A stretch of 64,000 nucleotides of DNA from assembly GCF_054482525.1 (NCBI RefSeq), contig NZ_CM137006.1; one strand, 5' to 3'. Every line of letters starts with the position of its first letter. The stretch's first letter is position 1. The notes under the pieces are model-generated. The model saw nothing but the letters and a program-made list of their open reading frames with translations. It was not told the DNA's origin and ran no database searches. The position numbers and the translations under genes were made by a program. Below are positions 53,201 through 61,957 of this stretch, one piece after another.

Positions 53201-53338
53201 CGTGTAATGGCTGCATGAAATAAACAATAAAATATAAATAACATTATCAGCCTGCCGACGGCTTGAAGAGAGTCACAGTATCTTGTGCAACATTATTGGA
53301 AAGCGTGAGGGGCGAGGTAGCGAAGCGGAAAAATGTTA

Positions 53339-53443
53339 AAAAAAAGCCCATCGTGGGAGATGGGCAAAGACTACACACAGCAATTCGTTGTTTCACTCAG
53401 GGGATTTAAGTCATTGATTGATTTATGGGTATGCGGTTTTTCG
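53339..53443 (-). ncRNA. rprA: sRNA RprA (3' ~69 nt canonical, 5' end divergent)
   Basis: Minus strand 53407->53339 reads AAAUCCCCUGAGUGAAACAACGAAUUGCUGUGUGUAGUCUUUGCCCAUCUCCCACGAUGGGCUUUUUUU (rpoS-pairing region plus terminator); the 5' end coordinate is extrapolated from the expected length. Confidence 0.7.
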
Positions 53444-53472
53444 GCATAAACCAAATTAAGCAAGGCTTGAAA

Positions 53473-54054
53473 ATGGACACACAAATTGCACACATATCGC
53501 ACACAAATAAAAAGGGGTATGTATGGCGCAAGCGTTATGAAAAACGCACGATTGAAATCATCCTACGCACCCGTGATAAATCAATTGCCATAAAAAGAGC
53601 GGCATCAATAACAATTCGCTATATGGAATTAAAATCACTTGACGTTCCATTTAAAGCAATGCTGGAAATGTTAAAAAAGTTTCGTGATGGTCTGATTACG
53701 TCACATGACATTGAGCGCTTAAGGTCGATTGCGATAGCTTCACAGGAAGCTCCACACGCCGCTGTAACCGCTTCGCCTATACAAAGTGTTGGCTATGATG
53801 TCAAAACCGCTCAGAAAGCCGCACAGGGGCATTCCCTTGGCGATGCTCAAAAAGTGTACTTTGGCGCCAACACCGAATGGAAAGAAAAAACCATCAAGGC
53901 TTATTCTGGTTGTATCGACCGCTTTATTTTATGGTGCGCTAATAAAAATATTCATACCGTGGAAGAAATAACGAAAGAGCATGTGATTTCATTTAAATCC
54001 AGCATGGATGAAGAAAAATTAGCCTCCATGACTAAATTTCGCATAATAATATGA
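53473..54054 (+). pseudogene. Tyrosine-recombinase (integrase)-like N-terminal fragment; catalytic domain absent
   Basis: ORF ends after a SAM-like core-binding segment (TIKAYSGCIDRFILWCANKNIHTVEEITKEHVISFKSSMDEEKLASMT); no downstream RHRY catalytic domain; start uncertain (53425/53473). Confidence 0.4.
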
Positions 54055-54362
54055 TTCGGGTTAGCATAACCAATACTTTTATTAAAGCCTATGTATGCAC
54101 CAATTTCTTTATACTTTAACTTAGTGAAATCTGAAATAATACTCAGTGGCTGCAATACGTTATGTCCATTGTGCGCCCCTTCATTAGCGCAAAATCCTGT
54201 ATTTGCAAACTGACCTTTATCACGCCAGATGAATCTATCAACGCCGCCACATACAGGACATGGTGTATGTTCATTTGGTTTAATATCAATTCCAAAATCA
54301 TTCATATGCACCAATGGATTCTTTTTAATATAATTATTCAAATCAGTAAAGAAATTAGCCAT
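53952..54362 (-). pseudogene. Primase N-terminal zinc-ribbon fragment (P4-alpha/T7-gp4-type CPxCGG..C), truncated
   Basis: HTPCPVCGGVDRFIWRDKGQFANTGFCANEGAH zinc-ribbon signature; ORF stops after about 135 aa and overlaps the integrase fragment on the opposite strand. Confidence 0.45.
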
Positions 54363-54681
54363 TATATTTGCTCCCGTATCGCCTTGCTGGATGCTTTGCA
54401 AAGAAATCAACGATATCTTGTTTGCGATACCAGATATAACCGTCTAATTCATGATGAATTTCTTGCGGAAATTCTTTAGGGTTAAAGCGTTTGGCGGCAT
54501 AAAACATTGGTTTAGTAACACCAGATAAAGCAATTGCATCATTGCCACACACAAGCCCTGTAAGTTGCACTTTCTGCGATTGTTCTTTTATCTGTGCCGC
54601 GATTAGCCTTTTATTCTCATTAACGTATTTTTCAATCTGTAGCTTACGCATTTTTTCGCGCATGTAATTTATATCGGTCAT
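54355..54681 (-). CDS. AlpA/excisionase-like DNA-binding protein
   Basis: 108-aa ORF; C-terminal segment TKPMFYAAKRFNPKEFPQEIHHELDGYIWYRKQDIVDFF resembles AlpA-family HTH. Confidence 0.5.
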   Translation of the reverse strand: MTDINYMREKMRKLQIEKYVNENKRLIAAQIKEQSQKVQLTGLVCGNDAIALSGVTKPMFYAAKRFNPKEFPQEIHHELDGYIWYRKQDIVDFFAKHPARRYGSKYNG

Positions 54682-56247: not shown

Positions 56248-56400
56248 TTATATAGATGCTTTGTTTTTTTTGTTTTTATCGCAAGTAACTAAATGCTCTT
56301 TTGGAAATTCTTTAGGGTTAAAACGTTTAGCCATATAAAAAGCGGTTGAGCCAATTTTAGCCAAAAGTTGTGCTTCACGAGGTGTAATTAAGTCGCTCAT
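56248..56400 (-). pseudogene. Second, truncated AlpA-like copy (50 codons)
   Basis: MSDLITPREAQLLAKIGSTAFYMAKRFNPKEFPKE...; DNA about 56305-56340 is an imperfect duplicate of 54473-54510; ends in a poly-T/A tract. Confidence 0.35.
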
Positions 56401-56689: not shown

Positions 56690-56925
56690 TGATAATTCAA
56701 CCAATCCATTCAACCTATTCGAATGGGTGGTGAATTTTTGACCGAATTAAATTCACCTGAATATTCACCGAATGATTCACCTGAATCATTCAGCCCTTCA
56801 TTCACCACGAAACCCAGGCGCGGCGGGGCTTACAGGCCGATTCATTCACCTGAATATTCACCTGAATATTCACCTGAATTATTCAACCAAAAATTCACCT
56901 TCATATTCACTCATTCACCTCTCTA
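56690..56925. repeat. Iteron array: at least 9 TTCACC hexamers, including tandem palindromic 12-mers ATTCACCTGAAT
   Basis: TTCACC at 56751, 56763, 56775, 56800, 56844, 56856, 56868, 56893, 56913; three exact tandem 12-mers at 56843-56878. Confidence 0.65.
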
Positions 56926-57236
56926 TAAATAAGCATTGGAATGCTTTTTATAGAGGTTGATGAATGAAGGTCGTTCAAGTGAATGAACTGTGAGTTGGGT
57001 AAACCCCTAGGGGTTGGGGGTGTTGTCGATTTGTGGTAAATTCCTTCTGCCAGCGTGAAAAAGGCGCTGGTGGGGATTTGCAGCCCCAAACAAACAAAAC
57101 CATTGGCAAGGAATTGCCGATGCGCGTGCGCACGTCAGTTATGGCGGTCACGGCGAGGGAGTCGAAAGGCTCGCCAGTTTTGTTTGTTTGCTGGTACTGC
57201 AAACCTCGTCGTGATCGTCACCACGGGGATGCATGT

Positions 57237-57705: not shown

Positions 57706-57751
57706 CCTTTTCTTTGCTTCACCAGCCCCGTAGGGGCGTGAGCGTAGCGAA
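57706..57751 (+). repeat. 46-bp direct repeat, copy 1 (identical to 61912-61957)
   Basis: ccttttctttgcttcaccagccccgtaggggcgtgagcgtagcgaa; contains hairpin GCCCC-GTA-GGGGC. Confidence 0.85.
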
Positions 57752-57849: not shown

Positions 57850-59001
57850 ATGCACGAGAAAGCGCAAACAAAAATAAAAGATACTATTAGAGAAATACTA
57901 ATCACTCCAGCAATCGCTTTTACTGGTCGTGCAGGTCATTTTGATTTTTCATTATATGAAGTTTTAGCAAATGAGCTTAACAAAAGAAAGATAAAGTTTA
58001 AAATTGATAAATTATCATGTTGGATTATTTTTGATGGCGCAAAAAAACATTACTTTCAAGATAAATCAATTACTGACGCACAAGCGATAAATGATTTTGT
58101 GGATACGTTATGTAGTATTTACTGTGAAACACCTATGGATTACTCCATCGATTTTCACTTTAGAAATTTAAAAATCGATATCAACCCGATTGATTATGAG
58201 TTTGTTTCAATTAGAGCGGGTGAGGATATTGGTATTGGTTTGTTCGCTGAAAAAGAAAAGTATGCGATTGCGAGCATTAAAAAGAATGGCTATCTTTCAG
58301 GTGGTTATCCTAGCTCATTTATAAAATCGATTTTGCAAGATTTGAAAATCTTCATTTTTTTGATTAAAAGCATTAATTTGATTAAGACAGGAAAAACCAA
58401 TTTAGCATCCACGTTATTTCAATCGATGTCCGGTCATGCTGACACAATTAAGATTGATTGCGTTAATGTTAAATATCCTTGGATGAATAGCAGTGTCCAT
58501 ATTTCAGAGTCGGTAGGGAAATTTTTACACAACTTTATCTTCAATTATGAATTTGAAGAAGGCTACATTATAGAAAAAATAGATCATTCGCTTCAGCTAA
58601 TGAATGCAATAGTAAAAGATGAGTCAAAAGAAGCCTTGCGTATCAAGGCTGCAATTGATTGGTTGGTGCAATCTGAAATCACTGATGATGAAACCATGTC
58701 TTTTATTCAAATTTGCATGGGGCTTGAATCAATTTTTGGTGATGATGATTATGAGGGTGGCCTAACAAACATACTATCTGATAGATGCGCCTACTTAATA
58801 GGGAATAAAATTAAAGAGAGGAGATTTATAAAGGACACATTTAAAAAAATATATCAAGTTAGGTCAAAGATAGTGCATGGCGTAAGAAATCATTTATCAG
58901 ATGATGAATTATATTTTAGGCATTTAGCATATTCATATTTAGAGCGTTCTATTCTAAAAGAAATTCAAAATTTAGACCTGCAATCCCATCAGGCGACGTG
59001 A
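57850..59001 (+). CDS. Hypothetical 383-aa protein with C-terminal HEPN-like R-x4-H-G motif (candidate Abi-type RNase)
   Basis: Long AT-rich ORF with SD aaggtg 11 nt upstream; RSKIVHG at residues 338-344 (nt 58861-58881) in a helical C-terminal domain. Confidence 0.65.
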   Translation: MHEKAQTKIKDTIREILITPAIAFTGRAGHFDFSLYEVLANELNKRKIKFKIDKLSCWIIFDGAKKHYFQDKSITDAQAINDFVDTLCSIYCETPMDYSIDFHFRNLKIDINPIDYEFVSIRAGEDIGIGLFAEKEKYAIASIKKNGYLSGGYPSSFIKSILQDLKIFIFLIKSINLIKTGKTNLASTLFQSMSGHADTIKIDCVNVKYPWMNSSVHISESVGKFLHNFIFNYEFEEGYIIEKIDHSLQLMNAIVKDESKEALRIKAAIDWLVQSEITDDETMSFIQICMGLESIFGDDDYEGGLTNILSDRCAYLIGNKIKERRFIKDTFKKIYQVRSKIVHGVRNHLSDDELYFRHLAYSYLERSILKEIQNLDLQSHQAT

Positions 59002-59288
59002 AGCTTGTGCGCTTCATTATGGGGCTAGCCGCCATCAGGCAAGGCGATTGCATGTCTTTGCGCTTCGTCGCCTCCTGATGCGTTCTGTGAAGATGTCGAT
59101 CATTTAGTGAGCGCGGCGGATGTTGCTGATGGATAGTGTGGATGCAACTGAACCATACCGCGAAAAGTGGCAGGATTGCGCCGGAATCGTACCGCTAGCA
59201 GGTGTTGAGTGTAAGAAGTAGTGATTGGGTGAAATGAAGATAGAAGGCCGCATAGAGGCATACAACTAGCCTTATGCGGTTGGCTGGT

Positions 59289-59732
59289 TCAGCACTGGTA
59301 AAAGTTGGCGAGGTGTGGAATATGGCTGGTGGTGGTTTCGAAAGCCTTGAGGCGTCCATTTTTATCTTTTTTCAAGTAGAGCATTTTTAGTGCTGGTGGA
59401 AATACTGAATCCATAATTCCATAAACTCCCACATTTTCGTTTTCTTCTTTAAGCATTCCCCAATATTGATAACCATTTAATGCGCTATCATCAATGCCCG
59501 TTCCAACGCGCTTAATGTGGGCAAGATATCGGCCTTTTATCGTAAAGCTAAATGATTCATCACGTTCATTTGTGCAAGTGTAAAATCCATCATCGCTTTC
59601 ATTTATAACTTCAGATGCTTCACGATTTAATGAGTACTTGTCTAAGTTGTTTATGATGTCACTTCGCTGTGCGCATCCAGTCAAATTTAGAATGGTAAAA
59701 ATTAGTACAGAAGATGCAAGATATTTGTTCAT
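59289..59732 (-). CDS. Hypothetical lipoprotein (147 aa)
   Basis: MNKYLASSVLIFTILNLTGC signal peptide plus lipobox; start at internal ATG 59732. Confidence 0.6.
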   Translation of the reverse strand: MNKYLASSVLIFTILNLTGCAQRSDIINNLDKYSLNREASEVINESDDGFYTCTNERDESFSFTIKGRYLAHIKRVGTGIDDSALNGYQYWGMLKEENENVGVYGIMDSVFPPALKMLYLKKDKNGRLKAFETTTSHIPHLANFYQC

Positions 59733-59818
59733 TTTGATTATCCATATGAAAAGCAAGGTACTTAGATTAAATTACCCTGCTTAAGCAGTAATTAGCGGTT
59801 CCGTTAATAGAGGGTAGA

Positions 59819-60178
59819 TTATTTGTTAATTTGTTTTTTAGTGTGTGAGATAAAATTTCTAAGTAAATCTTTTTCAATTACAATTTCACATTTTAGGTTT
59901 TGGCTATCGACCGCATCAATTCTATCAAACCAAAACATTAATTCCTGGCTTGCATCGCATTTACGTTTGAATTTAATTGCCCTGCCGAATTTTTCACTTA
60001 AAGAATCATCATCACATAAAAAATAAATTTTATTATTAATGGTGATTTGAATTAAATATGTCTTCCTCGTTAGGTAATCTAACCTTTCGTTAGCTTTCAG
60101 TAAGTTAGCTTCAGCTTGTTTGATGCGTATAAGAGCATCCTCTTTGCTTAAAGGGGATGTATTGACAGACTTGATCAT
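59819..60178 (-). CDS. Hypothetical protein (119 aa), upstream partner of the lipoprotein gene
   Basis: ORF co-oriented with and 62 bp upstream of the lipoprotein gene; no recognisable family. Confidence 0.5.
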   Translation of the reverse strand: MIKSVNTSPLSKEDALIRIKQAEANLLKANERLDYLTRKTYLIQITINNKIYFLCDDDSLSEKFGRAIKFKRKCDASQELMFWFDRIDAVDSQNLKCEIVIEKDLLRNFISHTKKQINK

Positions 60179-60287
60179 AATTTAATCCTTTGGTTAAGAT
60201 TCATCAAAAATATGCCATAAATAGCCTTGAAGGTTGTGTGGAATACATATTATGATAGCTTCATCTAATCAGCAAGGGGAATAATAG

Positions 60288-60443
60288 ATGCCTTCTAAAC
60301 GTGTTATATGCTCACTTGATGAGCAAGAGTTAGATATTCTCGAAAAATATAAATTACATTATAAAAATATGCATGGCGTAAAATTAAACAGAACGGCAAT
60401 TATCAAAATGTTGATTAGTCGTCTATCAAAAGAAATTCAATAA
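60288..60443 (+). CDS. Small putative ribbon-helix-helix (CopG/Arc-like) regulator, 51 aa
   Basis: MPSKRVICSLDEQELDILEKYKLHYKNMHGVKLNRTAIIKMLISRLSKEIQ: beta-strand then two helices pattern; divergent from the minus-strand pair; below ORF-track cutoff, found by own reading. Confidence 0.45.
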   Translation: MPSKRVICSLDEQELDILEKYKLHYKNMHGVKLNRTAIIKMLISRLSKEIQ

Positions 60444-60495: not shown

Positions 60496-60810
60496 ATGCA
60501 CACTCTTTTTTCTAAATTTAAAAACAGGAAAATTAAAATGTATCAACCACGTTATAAAAGCAGAATGATTGACGATAATGAATATAATCAGGTGCTTCAA
60601 TCGAGAATGCAAAATCTTTTAAATCAATATAATAATGAGGTTTCAAACTTAACCCGCATTGGTGTTACAAATTTGGGTTTCGGCCGATGGGATAATGGAG
60701 AGAGCAAAATCAATAACCACGTTAATAAAGTAAGTGAGACTTTGGAAAAGATGCAATCTACGCAAGCCTTGATTGATGCTCTTGCAAATGAAATTACACA
60801 AACTAATTAA
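60496..60810 (+). CDS. Hypothetical small protein A (104 aa)
   Basis: ORF with SD aaagagg 8 nt upstream; AT-rich. Confidence 0.5.
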   Translation: MHTLFSKFKNRKIKMYQPRYKSRMIDDNEYNQVLQSRMQNLLNQYNNEVSNLTRIGVTNLGFGRWDNGESKINNHVNKVSETLEKMQSTQALIDALANEITQTN

Positions 60811-60894
60811 TCGAATGGGGGATGCTTTAAATGGTAATCGCAATCATGGTTGTAATGTTTTGGGCTTTCCTGATTCTTAAAGAGGAAATGAAAT

Positions 60895-61179
60895 ATGGTT
60901 AAATTTGGAGTGTTTTACCATCATGCATGGGGTGATGGTAAAAAGGAAATCCCGCCACCTGATTTAAATTACATCCGAACCGATCCACATAAAAATAATG
61001 AAATTGCTTTAGATGTTTTTGATTCAAGAATGGACGCACAAAAACGCGCTGATTTACTAAATTCACGCATGGCAAAAAATCAAACTGGTCAGCATTATGT
61101 TGCGCCAACAACGCAAGAAACCAAAACGGCTCAAAAGCGCTTTAAGTTTCCTTGTACTAGCATTTATGGGTGGAAATGA
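60895..61179 (+). CDS. Hypothetical small protein B (94 aa)
   Basis: ORF with SD aagagga; N-terminus KFGVFYHHAWGDGKKEIPPPD resembles that of protein C. Confidence 0.5.
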   Translation: MVKFGVFYHHAWGDGKKEIPPPDLNYIRTDPHKNNEIALDVFDSRMDAQKRADLLNSRMAKNQTGQHYVAPTTQETKTAQKRFKFPCTSIYGWK

Positions 61180-61181
61180 AA

Positions 61182-61556
61182 ATGAGTAAACAATTCGGTG
61201 TTTTCTTTTGGCGAAAAGGTGACGCTATTACCGATATCCCGTCAGATAAAAATGTTGCAAATCGCGGAGTAAAGCCTAAGCGCATTTTTTCAGATTATAT
61301 TGATGGAATGCGATATAAAGATAAAATGAATGCAACAATTCCAGCGGCGCAAAAAGGTAAATATGAATATGTATTAGCGGAAATTGTTGAACCAGACCCG
61401 AACAATACAAAGGTGTTGTTTAAATCTGGAAATTTAACAGAAGCATTAAGGGCGAAGCGACAAACAACCGAACAAATCAACCGAAATAAAATTGATGCAA
61501 TGATTAAAGAAGCCGCACACGATTACCTTTACACTATTACAGGAATGGAAAAATGA
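61182..61556 (+). CDS. Hypothetical small protein C (about 125 aa; start at ATG 61182 or 61176)
   Basis: QFGVFFWRKGDAITDIPSDKN N-terminus paralogous to B; abuts stop of B. Confidence 0.5.
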   Translation: MSKQFGVFFWRKGDAITDIPSDKNVANRGVKPKRIFSDYIDGMRYKDKMNATIPAAQKGKYEYVLAEIVEPDPNNTKVLFKSGNLTEALRAKRQTTEQINRNKIDAMIKEAAHDYLYTITGMEK

Positions 61557-61852
61557 TTATTGACGAGCGATTTATTAAATGGTCAATGGTGCTGGTGGAG
61601 GCCGGAAAGCCATCACCCAGCCTCGCGGGGCTTTATAAAGGAAACACTAAAGGATTAATCTTTTATAAAACACGTGAATTGGCATCAAATGCAGCCACTA
61701 AACGGAATGAGCAATTAGCAGGAACTAAATCAACCAGCCGATTTAAAATCATTAAATTGCATGACGCAGAAGCACAACAGAAACATGATTTTCAGTTAAA
61801 ACAGGAACGCCAGCGCCGCGATGCACGCCATATGCGCCGATTTGGTTTCTAA
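61553..61852 (+). CDS. Hypothetical small protein D (99 aa), basic C-terminus
   Basis: Start ATG overlaps stop of C (ATGA), indicating translational coupling. Confidence 0.5.
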   Translation: MIIDERFIKWSMVLVEAGKPSPSLAGLYKGNTKGLIFYKTRELASNAATKRNEQLAGTKSTSRFKIIKLHDAEAQQKHDFQLKQERQRRDARHMRRFGF

Positions 61853-61911: not shown

Positions 61912-61957
61912 CCTTTTCTTTGCTTCACCAGCCCCGTAGGGGCGTGAGCGTAGCGAA
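61912..61957 (+). repeat. 46-bp direct repeat, copy 2 (identical to 57706-57751)
   Basis: Same 46-mer, 37 bp upstream of the tape-measure-like ORF. Confidence 0.85.

Follow-up and report, generated by a model that had tools for sequence, protein, structure and literature searches.

A candidate ribbon-helix-helix switch, a conserved orphan protein and an interchangeable lipoprotein cassette in a satellite-like island of Escherichia coli

INTRODUCTION

What do three small orphan genes beside a HEPN gene do, and do they do it together? The question is raised by a stretch of 64,000 nucleotides of Escherichia coli chromosome (RefSeq assembly GCF_054482525.1, contig NZ_CM137006.1), which is called the window here. 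A 51-amino-acid open reading frame (ORF) on the plus strand (60288-60443) stands back to back with two minus-strand genes, one for a basic cytoplasmic protein of 119 amino acids (59819-60178) and one for a lipoprotein of 147 amino acids (59289-59732, counted from an ATG; the mechanically called ORF begins at a TTG at 59756). An initial annotation had read this trio as a divergent module of a ribbon-helix-helix (RHH) regulator and a two-gene operon, perhaps serving defense or superinfection exclusion, perhaps a partner of the HEPN gene. The positions of the ORFs and the PGAP annotation confirm the three genes; in E. coli strain SCU-102, which is 100% identical around the trio, RefSeq/PGAP lists each product as "hypothetical protein" (WP_001139482.1, WP_000597764.1, and WP_001046151.1). 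The trio lies within an island of ~11.7 kb inserted in the small RNA gene rprA, two copies of which flank it (one at 53336-53456, the other just beyond the end of the window, as placed by the SCU-102 locus).

We arrive at a reading to which we give about an even chance: an RHH switch and a 119-aa backbone protein, joined by a gated and interchangeable lipoprotein cassette, in a satellite-like island. The trio would then add a new member to each of two known kinds, the RHH regulators and the moron-type lipoproteins, the third protein being an orphan.

RESULTS

To see what is constant in this arrangement, 15 related loci were compared, taken from RefSeq matches, a scan of species-representative genomes, and contigs encoding homologs of the 119-aa protein. 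They span seven genera of Enterobacterales (Escherichia, Salmonella, Citrobacter, Enterobacter, Kluyvera, Phytobacter, and Hafnia) and occupy at least three different chromosomal sites. Gene order is constant among them. One arm reads integrase, T5orf172, primase, small gene, helicase, small gene; the other reads Ner-like gene, cargo, at least one lipoprotein gene, and the 119-aa gene, followed by the divergent RHH gene, then small genes, the tape-measure gene, and further cargo. Every one of the 15 loci has the 119-aa gene and the 51-aa ORF in divergent orientation, including five in which the annotation had not called the latter, and in all of them a lipoprotein gene lies downstream of the 119-aa gene.

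Changes at the third codon position are in excess for all three genes when islands are compared. At codon positions 1, 2, and 3, the changes number 13/7/33 for the 119-aa gene (against L003, the E. coli S10 island), 15/3/36 for the lipoprotein gene (against L012), and 13/11/23 for the 51-aa gene (against L011). The three are therefore real coding genes, and they are under purifying selection. None of their products has a match in Pfam, PHROGs, NCBIfam, or PADLOC, which upholds the initial statement that no family could be assigned.

What changes from island to island is the lipoprotein. The slot downstream of the 119-aa gene holds at least four unrelated lipoprotein families. Family A, with a C-x-N-x-x-DESF motif and a C-terminal Cys, occupies it in the window and in L002, L003, L005, L008, L009, L011, L012, L014, L016, and L017; family B is found in L004 (the Hafnia island), family C in L006/L007, L010, and L015, and family D in L009, where a family A gene follows it. 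These exchanges take place on closely similar backbones. L015 and L017 have tape-measure proteins that are 96% identical and 119-aa proteins that are 86% identical, yet they carry families C and A1, respectively; L004 and L009, with tape-measure proteins 94% identical, carry B and D plus A3. Lipoprotein family and tape-measure type do not covary across the loci, which argues against a specific partnership between the two. By this comparison, the lipoprotein cassette is swapped independently of the backbone, and the 119-aa and RHH genes are the invariant island backbone on which the lipoprotein is interchangeable cargo.

The slot is bounded on both sides, upstream by a palindrome and a hairpin with a U tract and downstream by a GC-rich noncoding element. 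The latter, ~260 nt long (59025-59290), lies between the stop codons of the HEPN and lipoprotein genes. It is present in 12 of the 15 loci, irrespective of the flanking cargo, with a core of CAGG-AAGGCGATTG...CGCCTCCTGATGCG, and neither Rfam nor the phage collection contains a match to it. Its plus strand folds better than its minus strand (by G-U pairs), with little covariation. It could be a noncoding RNA or a packaging or recombination site.

The HEPN gene (383 aa; 57850-59001, plus strand), annotated by PGAP and carrying an RSKIVHG motif that we read from the sequence, directly adjoins the lipoprotein gene, as initially described, and is convergent with it. It is missing from L004, L006, and L017, all of which keep the trio, and in L009 it lies beyond the Ner-like gene. 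The obligate co-occurrence that marks a two-gene HEPN defense system is thus not found, and across these islands the HEPN gene is cargo and not an obligate partner of the trio.

These observations bear on the possibility that the trio is one self-contained defense or exclusion module, in which a toxic or effector 119-aa protein, kept under autoregulation by the RHH protein, acts with the lipoprotein and possibly with the HEPN protein. The genes are adjacent and divergent, all are orphans beside a HEPN gene, and the lipoprotein gene always follows the 119-aa gene, as such a module would have it. However, the 119-aa protein is at least 86% identical between islands with different lipoprotein families, which means that the two are not specifically paired; a conserved terminator-like hairpin lies between their genes; the RHH gene heads a rightward string of six genes; the HEPN gene is missing from the three islands named above; and PADLOC returned no match. 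We consider a single module decidedly unlikely. The initial proposals that the trio forms one module or is a HEPN partner accordingly fall, the former because lipoprotein families are swapped beside invariant 119-aa and RHH genes and the latter because of those three islands. We prefer to read the trio as a two-gene backbone with exchangeable cargo.

Whether the 119-aa and lipoprotein genes are even expressed together is brought into question by the 86-nt spacer between them. Just past the 119-aa stop codon stands a conserved 16-bp palindrome, TTAACGGAACCGCTAA (59792-59807, minus strand), which occurs once only in the window, is perfect in L015 (TTAGCGGTTCCGCTAA), and is a candidate protein-binding site. 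It is followed by a conserved terminator-like hairpin with UUUU (~59751-59782, minus strand), ~18 nt upstream of the start codon of the lipoprotein gene. RNAfold was run on 15 spacers, and in the RNAalifold consensus 6 of 7 pairs are retained through two-sided changes. Two conserved noncoding elements of the island, that at 59025-59290 among them, have no counterpart in Rfam. Leftward transcripts that passed the 119-aa gene would meet first the palindrome and then the hairpin, and most of them would probably stop at the latter, leaving the lipoprotein gene gated; termination at the hairpin is itself a prediction. Because of these two elements, simple coexpression of the 119-aa and lipoprotein genes is doubtful. 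Divergence of the 51-aa gene from the minus-strand pair, as initially described, is seen in all 15 loci, but the description of that pair as an operon needs correcting in view of the hairpin and palindrome in its spacer.

The 51-aa protein models as an RHH fold. It was modeled with AlphaFold2 (AF2) as a single-chain tandem (RHH-linker-RHH, with a second linker to the mature lipoprotein) from an input alignment of 11 sequences paired by locus. Both copies form a strand (residues 3-11) and two helices (12-29 and 35-51), with a predicted local distance difference test (pLDDT) score of 71-85. The best eight Foldseek matches to the tandem model in the PDB are all TraY of the F plasmid (probability, 0.98-1.00; target TM-score, 0.55-0.58; 114-123 aligned columns), the identity of the TraY chain having been verified separately. 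TraY is a natural single-chain double RHH protein. At the level of the model, the 51-aa protein has the strand-helix-helix domain of ~45 residues that defines the RHH superfamily and, by way of the TraY match, the paired N-terminal strands that form the antiparallel ribbon of the dimer. The RHH character first suspected for this protein is borne out to that extent.

In the model the RHH fold takes up all 51 residues, and no C-terminal extension is left. This matters for a second alternative, a type II toxin-antitoxin pair with the RHH protein as antitoxin and either the 119-aa protein or the 90-aa protein encoded downstream of the RHH gene as toxin. Many antitoxins are RHH proteins, and here small proteins are encoded on a mobile element, which speaks for such a pair. 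RHH antitoxins carry a C-terminal tail, the part that neutralizes the toxin, whereas the 51-aa protein is the RHH domain only. Nor are the genes arranged as in such pairs, in which they are adjacent, codirectional, and usually overlapping: the 119-aa gene is divergent, and 95 bp separate the RHH gene from the start of the 90-aa gene, which a gene for 63-65 aa replaces or precedes in L006/L007, L011, and L016. No toxin family was found in Pfam, NCBIfam, or PADLOC. With divergent genes, a bare RHH domain lacking a toxin-binding tail, and no toxin-family match, the earlier suggestion of an RHH-controlled toxin finds no footing, and we regard a toxin-antitoxin pair as highly improbable.

A regulator at the head of an operon fits the 51-aa protein better. 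Its gene was initially taken as a stand-alone divergent counterpart of the leftward pair; instead, it is the first of six same-strand genes that end in a tape-measure-like gene. Between them lie four small orphan genes (encoding 90, 94, 124, and 99 aa; 60538-61852, plus strand) with no family matches, whose number varies between islands. Tail-assembly chaperones of siphophages sit just ahead of the tape-measure gene, the same position as these small genes, and no family match supports reading the small genes as chaperones. Two of their products, of 94 and 124 aa (60895-61852), are weakly paralogous (E 0.01), and both start (K/Q)FGVF(Y/F). The last gene of the string (662 aa; 61994-63982, plus strand) has the lambda-H C-terminal domain of tape-measure proteins. 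It matches TIGR01541 (E 3.6e-23) as well as several families of tape-measure proteins in PHROGs, and PF09718 is recorded on its homologs, which measure 661-737 aa and are 33-96% identical between islands.

The region between the divergent genes (60179-60287) was read by a consensus scan and an alignment of 10 loci. A rightward promoter is predicted with -35 TTGAAG (60227-60232) and -10 TATGAT (60251-60256), and the leftward -10 candidate is AAATAT (60209-60214, read on the minus strand). All 10 aligned regions retain the rightward -35/-10 pair, and CTTG, AAATAT, and ATA.TA are invariant. Imperfect CTAT..ATAG palindromes overlie the rightward -10 in several variants, which is weak evidence for an operator.

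Around this promoter region the islands differ in a way that is known from immunity regions, which show a mosaic pattern in which operator and reading head are exchanged together. Between the window and L003, nucleotide identity falls to 52-70% at 60200-60400, a patch that covers the promoter region and RHH codons 1-37 (the strand and helix 1); it is 77-97% across the 119-aa gene and, beyond the patch, 80-95% from 60400 to the end of the following gene. The N-terminal half of the RHH protein and the promoter region thus diverge jointly, as an operator with its repressor would. A dimer of the 51-aa protein, or a dimer of dimers, would bind an operator in the back-to-back promoter region (60200-60287) and would autoregulate the rightward string (RHH gene, four small genes, and tape-measure-like gene), probably with an effect on the leftward promoter too. 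DNA binding and repression are predicted here from the fold model and the mosaic pattern.

The leftward promoter would drive the 119-aa gene. Its product is basic (isoelectric point, 9.2) and has no hydrophobic segment, consistent with the initial reading as cytoplasmic. Structure prediction gives a confident model in which a long N-terminal helix and a C-terminal helix flank a small alpha/beta core; the model has no informative structural relative and shows neither a helix-turn-helix (HTH) nor an RHH nor any other known DNA-binding fold. Family members are closely similar, 28 residues being invariant, among them RLDYLTRKTYLI and a KFKRK patch. A HMMER profile run against 1.84 billion cluster representatives found the family as a single 50%-identity cluster and, beyond that cluster, only coiled-coil noise from giant proteins. 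Among 100,044 species-representative genomes the family turned up in one locus, in Phytobacter; a PDB sequence search with the family profile and tblastn searches of the phage and plasmid collections with the 119-aa protein found nothing. Within these searches, the 119-aa family is confined to the islands. Our best guess is that the 119-aa protein is a protein- or nucleic-acid-binding accessory of island regulation.

A third alternative would give this protein a more central part, as the maintenance repressor of the rightward (late) string in a CI/Cro-like bistable switch, with the RHH protein as a Cro- or Arc-like counter-regulator and the lipoprotein gene as a lysogenic-conversion gene coexpressed with that for the 119-aa protein. 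The layout resembles immI of phage P22 (sieA-mnt on one side, arc-ant-gene 9 on the other), the promoters are back to back, and the 119-aa protein is basic, invariant, and always paired with the RHH protein. However, the model contains no DNA-binding fold of a known kind, and the protein does not covary with the replaced operator patch: it is 87-92% identical across islands in which the operator region has been replaced and is therefore an unlikely reader of the operator sequence. The terminator-like hairpin ahead of the lipoprotein gene also sits badly with this arrangement. A bistable switch of this type is unlikely in our judgment, and we retain the RHH protein as the candidate reader of the operator, with the 119-aa protein as an accessory.

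The lipoprotein itself is well marked. A basic n-region, a hydrophobic core, and, at residues 17-20, a lipobox L-T-G-C followed by Ala at +2 can be read from its sequence, and the signal peptide (MNKYLASSVLIFTILNLTGC) fits the pattern [LVI][ASTVI][GAS]C, so the initial description of a lipoprotein with a clear lipobox stands. The lipobox Cys is retained in every cassette family, and all 15 loci have Ala, Thr, or Ser, and not Asp, at +2, from which sorting to the outer membrane is predicted by rule. The mature part of family A contains two conserved Cys residues. At a threshold of E 0.1 the window lipoprotein has only two, chance-level, matches in PHROGs, and the plasmid collection holds no tblastn match to family A. 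The other lipoprotein families and the small neighboring genes have no match in PHROGs, NCBIfam, PADLOC, or Pfam, except family C, which matches phrog_2320 and is ~35% identical to gp20 of phage ES18. The ES18 gene, annotated as a "possible moron," adjoins the ES18 tape-measure gene.

A role of the lipoprotein in superinfection exclusion is plausible because unrelated families of predicted outer membrane lipoproteins are swapped in one slot and because family C is akin to the possible moron of ES18. Most likely, it would serve as an envelope factor of the moron type, which would mask a surface receptor or alter it, Cor/Llp-like in action and unrelated in sequence. It could instead be cargo of another sort, for host fitness or virulence (serum resistance, as with Bor and Iss), for envelope stress, or for release of the island. 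Prophage lipoproteins such as Bor do have roles other than exclusion, none of the islands has a gene for a receptor-binding protein, and the Hafnia cassette shows weak matches, at the level of the signal peptide, to Rz-like spanin PHROGs (E 0.0015). Set against these points are four unrelated families rotating on near-identical backbones, which is more typical of arms-race cargo, and the lack of a spanin partner with a transmembrane domain, the 119-aa protein being without a hydrophobic segment. We rate a nonexclusion role as fairly unlikely and continue to favor receptor masking.

The remainder of the island resembles a phage satellite in its gene content. Its left arm carries, in order, remnants of the integrase and primase genes, a small gene, an AAA_25 helicase-like gene, and a 50-aa AlpA-like gene; the middle carries ATTCACCTGAAT iterons, a C4-type antisense RNA, a Ner/SfsB-like regulator, and the HEPN gene; and the right part carries the lipoprotein, 119-aa, and 51-aa genes, the four small orphan genes, the 662-aa tape-measure-like gene, and one further cargo gene. 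It contains no capsid, terminase, or lysis genes. The module is carried by 5 of 5,426 complete E. coli genomes, it is absent from the phage and plasmid collections, in the former of which the island DNA has no match, and our literature searches turned up no account of the island, nor of rprA serving as its attachment site. (A paper on Tai tail interference was considered and found to be unrelated to the island.)

The islands of E. coli FREC5 and S10 (L002 and L003) are intact, with a 401-aa integrase, a GIY-YIG/T5orf172 gene, a full primase, and a helicase. In the window, what is left of the integrase is 193 aa long and of the primase 136 aa, the two overlapping convergently (53473-54362), and the GIY-YIG/T5orf172 gene is missing. 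We call this copy degraded because its FREC5 and S10 relatives carry the integrase, T5orf172, and primase genes at full length, and it is probably immobile.

Several further elements of the window island have the look of replication and control sites. At least six copies of ATTCACCTGAAT, direct and inverted, lie at 56750-56911, between the AlpA-like/helicase operon and the C4 RNA, and this iteron array is the likely replication origin of the island. The C4-type antisense RNA (57137-57225; Rfam RF01695, 65.8 bits) stands directly ahead of the Ner/SfsB-like gene, and its loop UUUUGUUUGUUU is complementary over 14 nt to 57087-57100 and over 10 nt to codons 5-8 of the HEPN gene, which suggests RNA immunity of the P1/P4 style on the island. 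An exact 46-nt direct repeat, CCTTTTCTTTGCTTCACCAGCCCCGTAGGGGCGTGAGCGTAGCGAA, which contains a GCCCC/GGGGC hairpin, occurs at 57706-57751 and 61912-61957, at distances of ~100 and ~37 nt upstream of the HEPN and tape-measure-like genes, respectively. Its core is found again at equivalent positions in other islands, and the repeat is probably a regulatory element common to cargo and late genes. A second direct repeat, of 44 nt (54461-54504 and 56297-56340), is 84% identical between its copies and reveals that the 108-aa and 50-aa proteins of the replication arm have a common motif, FY(A/M)AKRFNPKEFP; their genes may be two copies of an AlpA-like domain.

DISCUSSION

The comparison answers the second half of our question more firmly than the first. 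The trio does not behave as a unit: two of its genes are backbone, and the third occupies a slot. What the parts do is suggested by the RHH model, the mosaic operator patch, the spacer hairpin, and the company that the lipoprotein keeps, which together argue for a switch followed by a gated cassette.

Several results weigh against this reading. The RHH fold call comes from AF2 modeling in which the tandem fusion was artificial, the alignment contained 11 sequences, and the pLDDT was 71-85; at the sequence level, the 51-aa protein has no Pfam match and no PDB profile match, and hhalign set the 51-aa family in register with a hand-typed RHH alignment at a nonsignificant probability of 3.5%. A search for an operator repeat common to all variants found only weak, variant-specific palindromes, and the joint divergence of promoter region and RHH gene could also be one recombination tract with no functional link. 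As to gating, a strict terminator scan did not flag the hairpin, the loop of which exceeds 8 nt. As to exclusion, family A has no tblastn match in 50,697 phage genomes; no island has an adjoining gene for a receptor-binding protein, unlike cor and llp; and the lipoprotein part of the fused model is not confident (pLDDT of <50 at residues 186-218), with only lipocalin-like matches (E > 1).

A bolder proposal would be that the rprA island family is an undescribed class of enterobacterial satellites that brings its own lambda-H-like tape-measure protein, uses the RHH/119-aa region as a late-gene switch with exchangeable operator and reading-head specificity, and rotates unrelated outer membrane lipoproteins, which would mask different phage receptors, through a dedicated, terminator-gated slot downstream of the 119-aa gene. 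We regard this as conceivable but, taken whole, doubtful.

For annotation, the immediate value lies in replacing the label "hypothetical" that all three proteins now bear. The cassette slot, the tape-measure gene, and the two noncoding elements that Rfam does not cover are more interesting than the trio itself. A slot with at least four lipoprotein families on near-identical backbones is a natural panel for finding receptor-masking proteins. A satellite-like island with a tape-measure gene has barely been reported, and if a helper phage is found, the switch that controls the tape-measure gene should be sought first in the RHH/119-aa region.

Among known elements, the P4-like elements together with phage-inducible chromosomal islands (PICIs) come closest to the island as a whole. 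An integrase and a replication module, the lack of capsid, terminase, and lysis genes, and a size of ~10-15 kb place it with the satellites, and by gene content it resembles one, as a rare integrative island of ~12-13 kb. With the P4-like elements and PICIs it shares a length of 12-13 kb, a tyrosine integrase, primase/helicase genes, an AlpA-like gene, a C4-type RNA, and variable, defense-like cargo (HEPN and PIN). It differs from them in carrying a tape-measure-like gene; no island protein has a PHROG or NCBIfam match to the P4 hallmarks (sid, delta, psu, epsilon, and alpha) or to PICI packaging or capsid-redirection genes; and no helper phage is known for it. According to a 2025 preprint (bioRxiv 10.64898/2025.12.02.691453), tape-measure genes in satellites are otherwise described only in the mycobacterial EPIPs and have been proposed for PLE11.

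The lipoprotein shares with Cor (of phi80, N15, and HK022) and Llp (of T5) a small size, outer membrane type, residence on a phage-related element, a conserved Cys pair in the mature protein, and fast sequence turnover. It differs from them in that no PHROG or phage tblastn match relates it to either, in that its mature form is about twice the size of Llp, and in that it sits behind a terminator-like gate and not beside a receptor-binding or tail fiber gene. As an exchangeable single-gene cassette between conserved regulatory or terminator boundaries, the slot is like the moron cassettes of lambdoid phages, such as ES18 gp20; unlike those, the window cassette has no evident promoter of its own, its hairpin lies upstream and not downstream, and its family A occurs in no sequenced phage. 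Rz/Rz1 spanins are a poorer comparison, as the 119-aa protein has no hydrophobic segment and the window lipoprotein has no spanin PHROG match.

For the 51-aa protein, the closest parallels are Arc and Mnt of the P22 immI region and CopG. It has no detectable sequence relationship to these proteins, its interhelix loop is ~5 residues longer, and its divergent partner is an orphan alpha/beta protein and not a second RHH protein such as Mnt; its operator is only a candidate. It resembles them in consisting of a strand-helix-helix alone (~45-53 aa), being of domain length like Arc, the N-terminal part of Mnt, and CopG and unlike the tailed RHH antitoxins. Like theirs, its gene stands first in the operon that it would repress and adjoins a divergent promoter, and the arc operon of P22 also continues toward a tail gene, much as the string headed by the 51-aa gene runs to the tape-measure-like gene.

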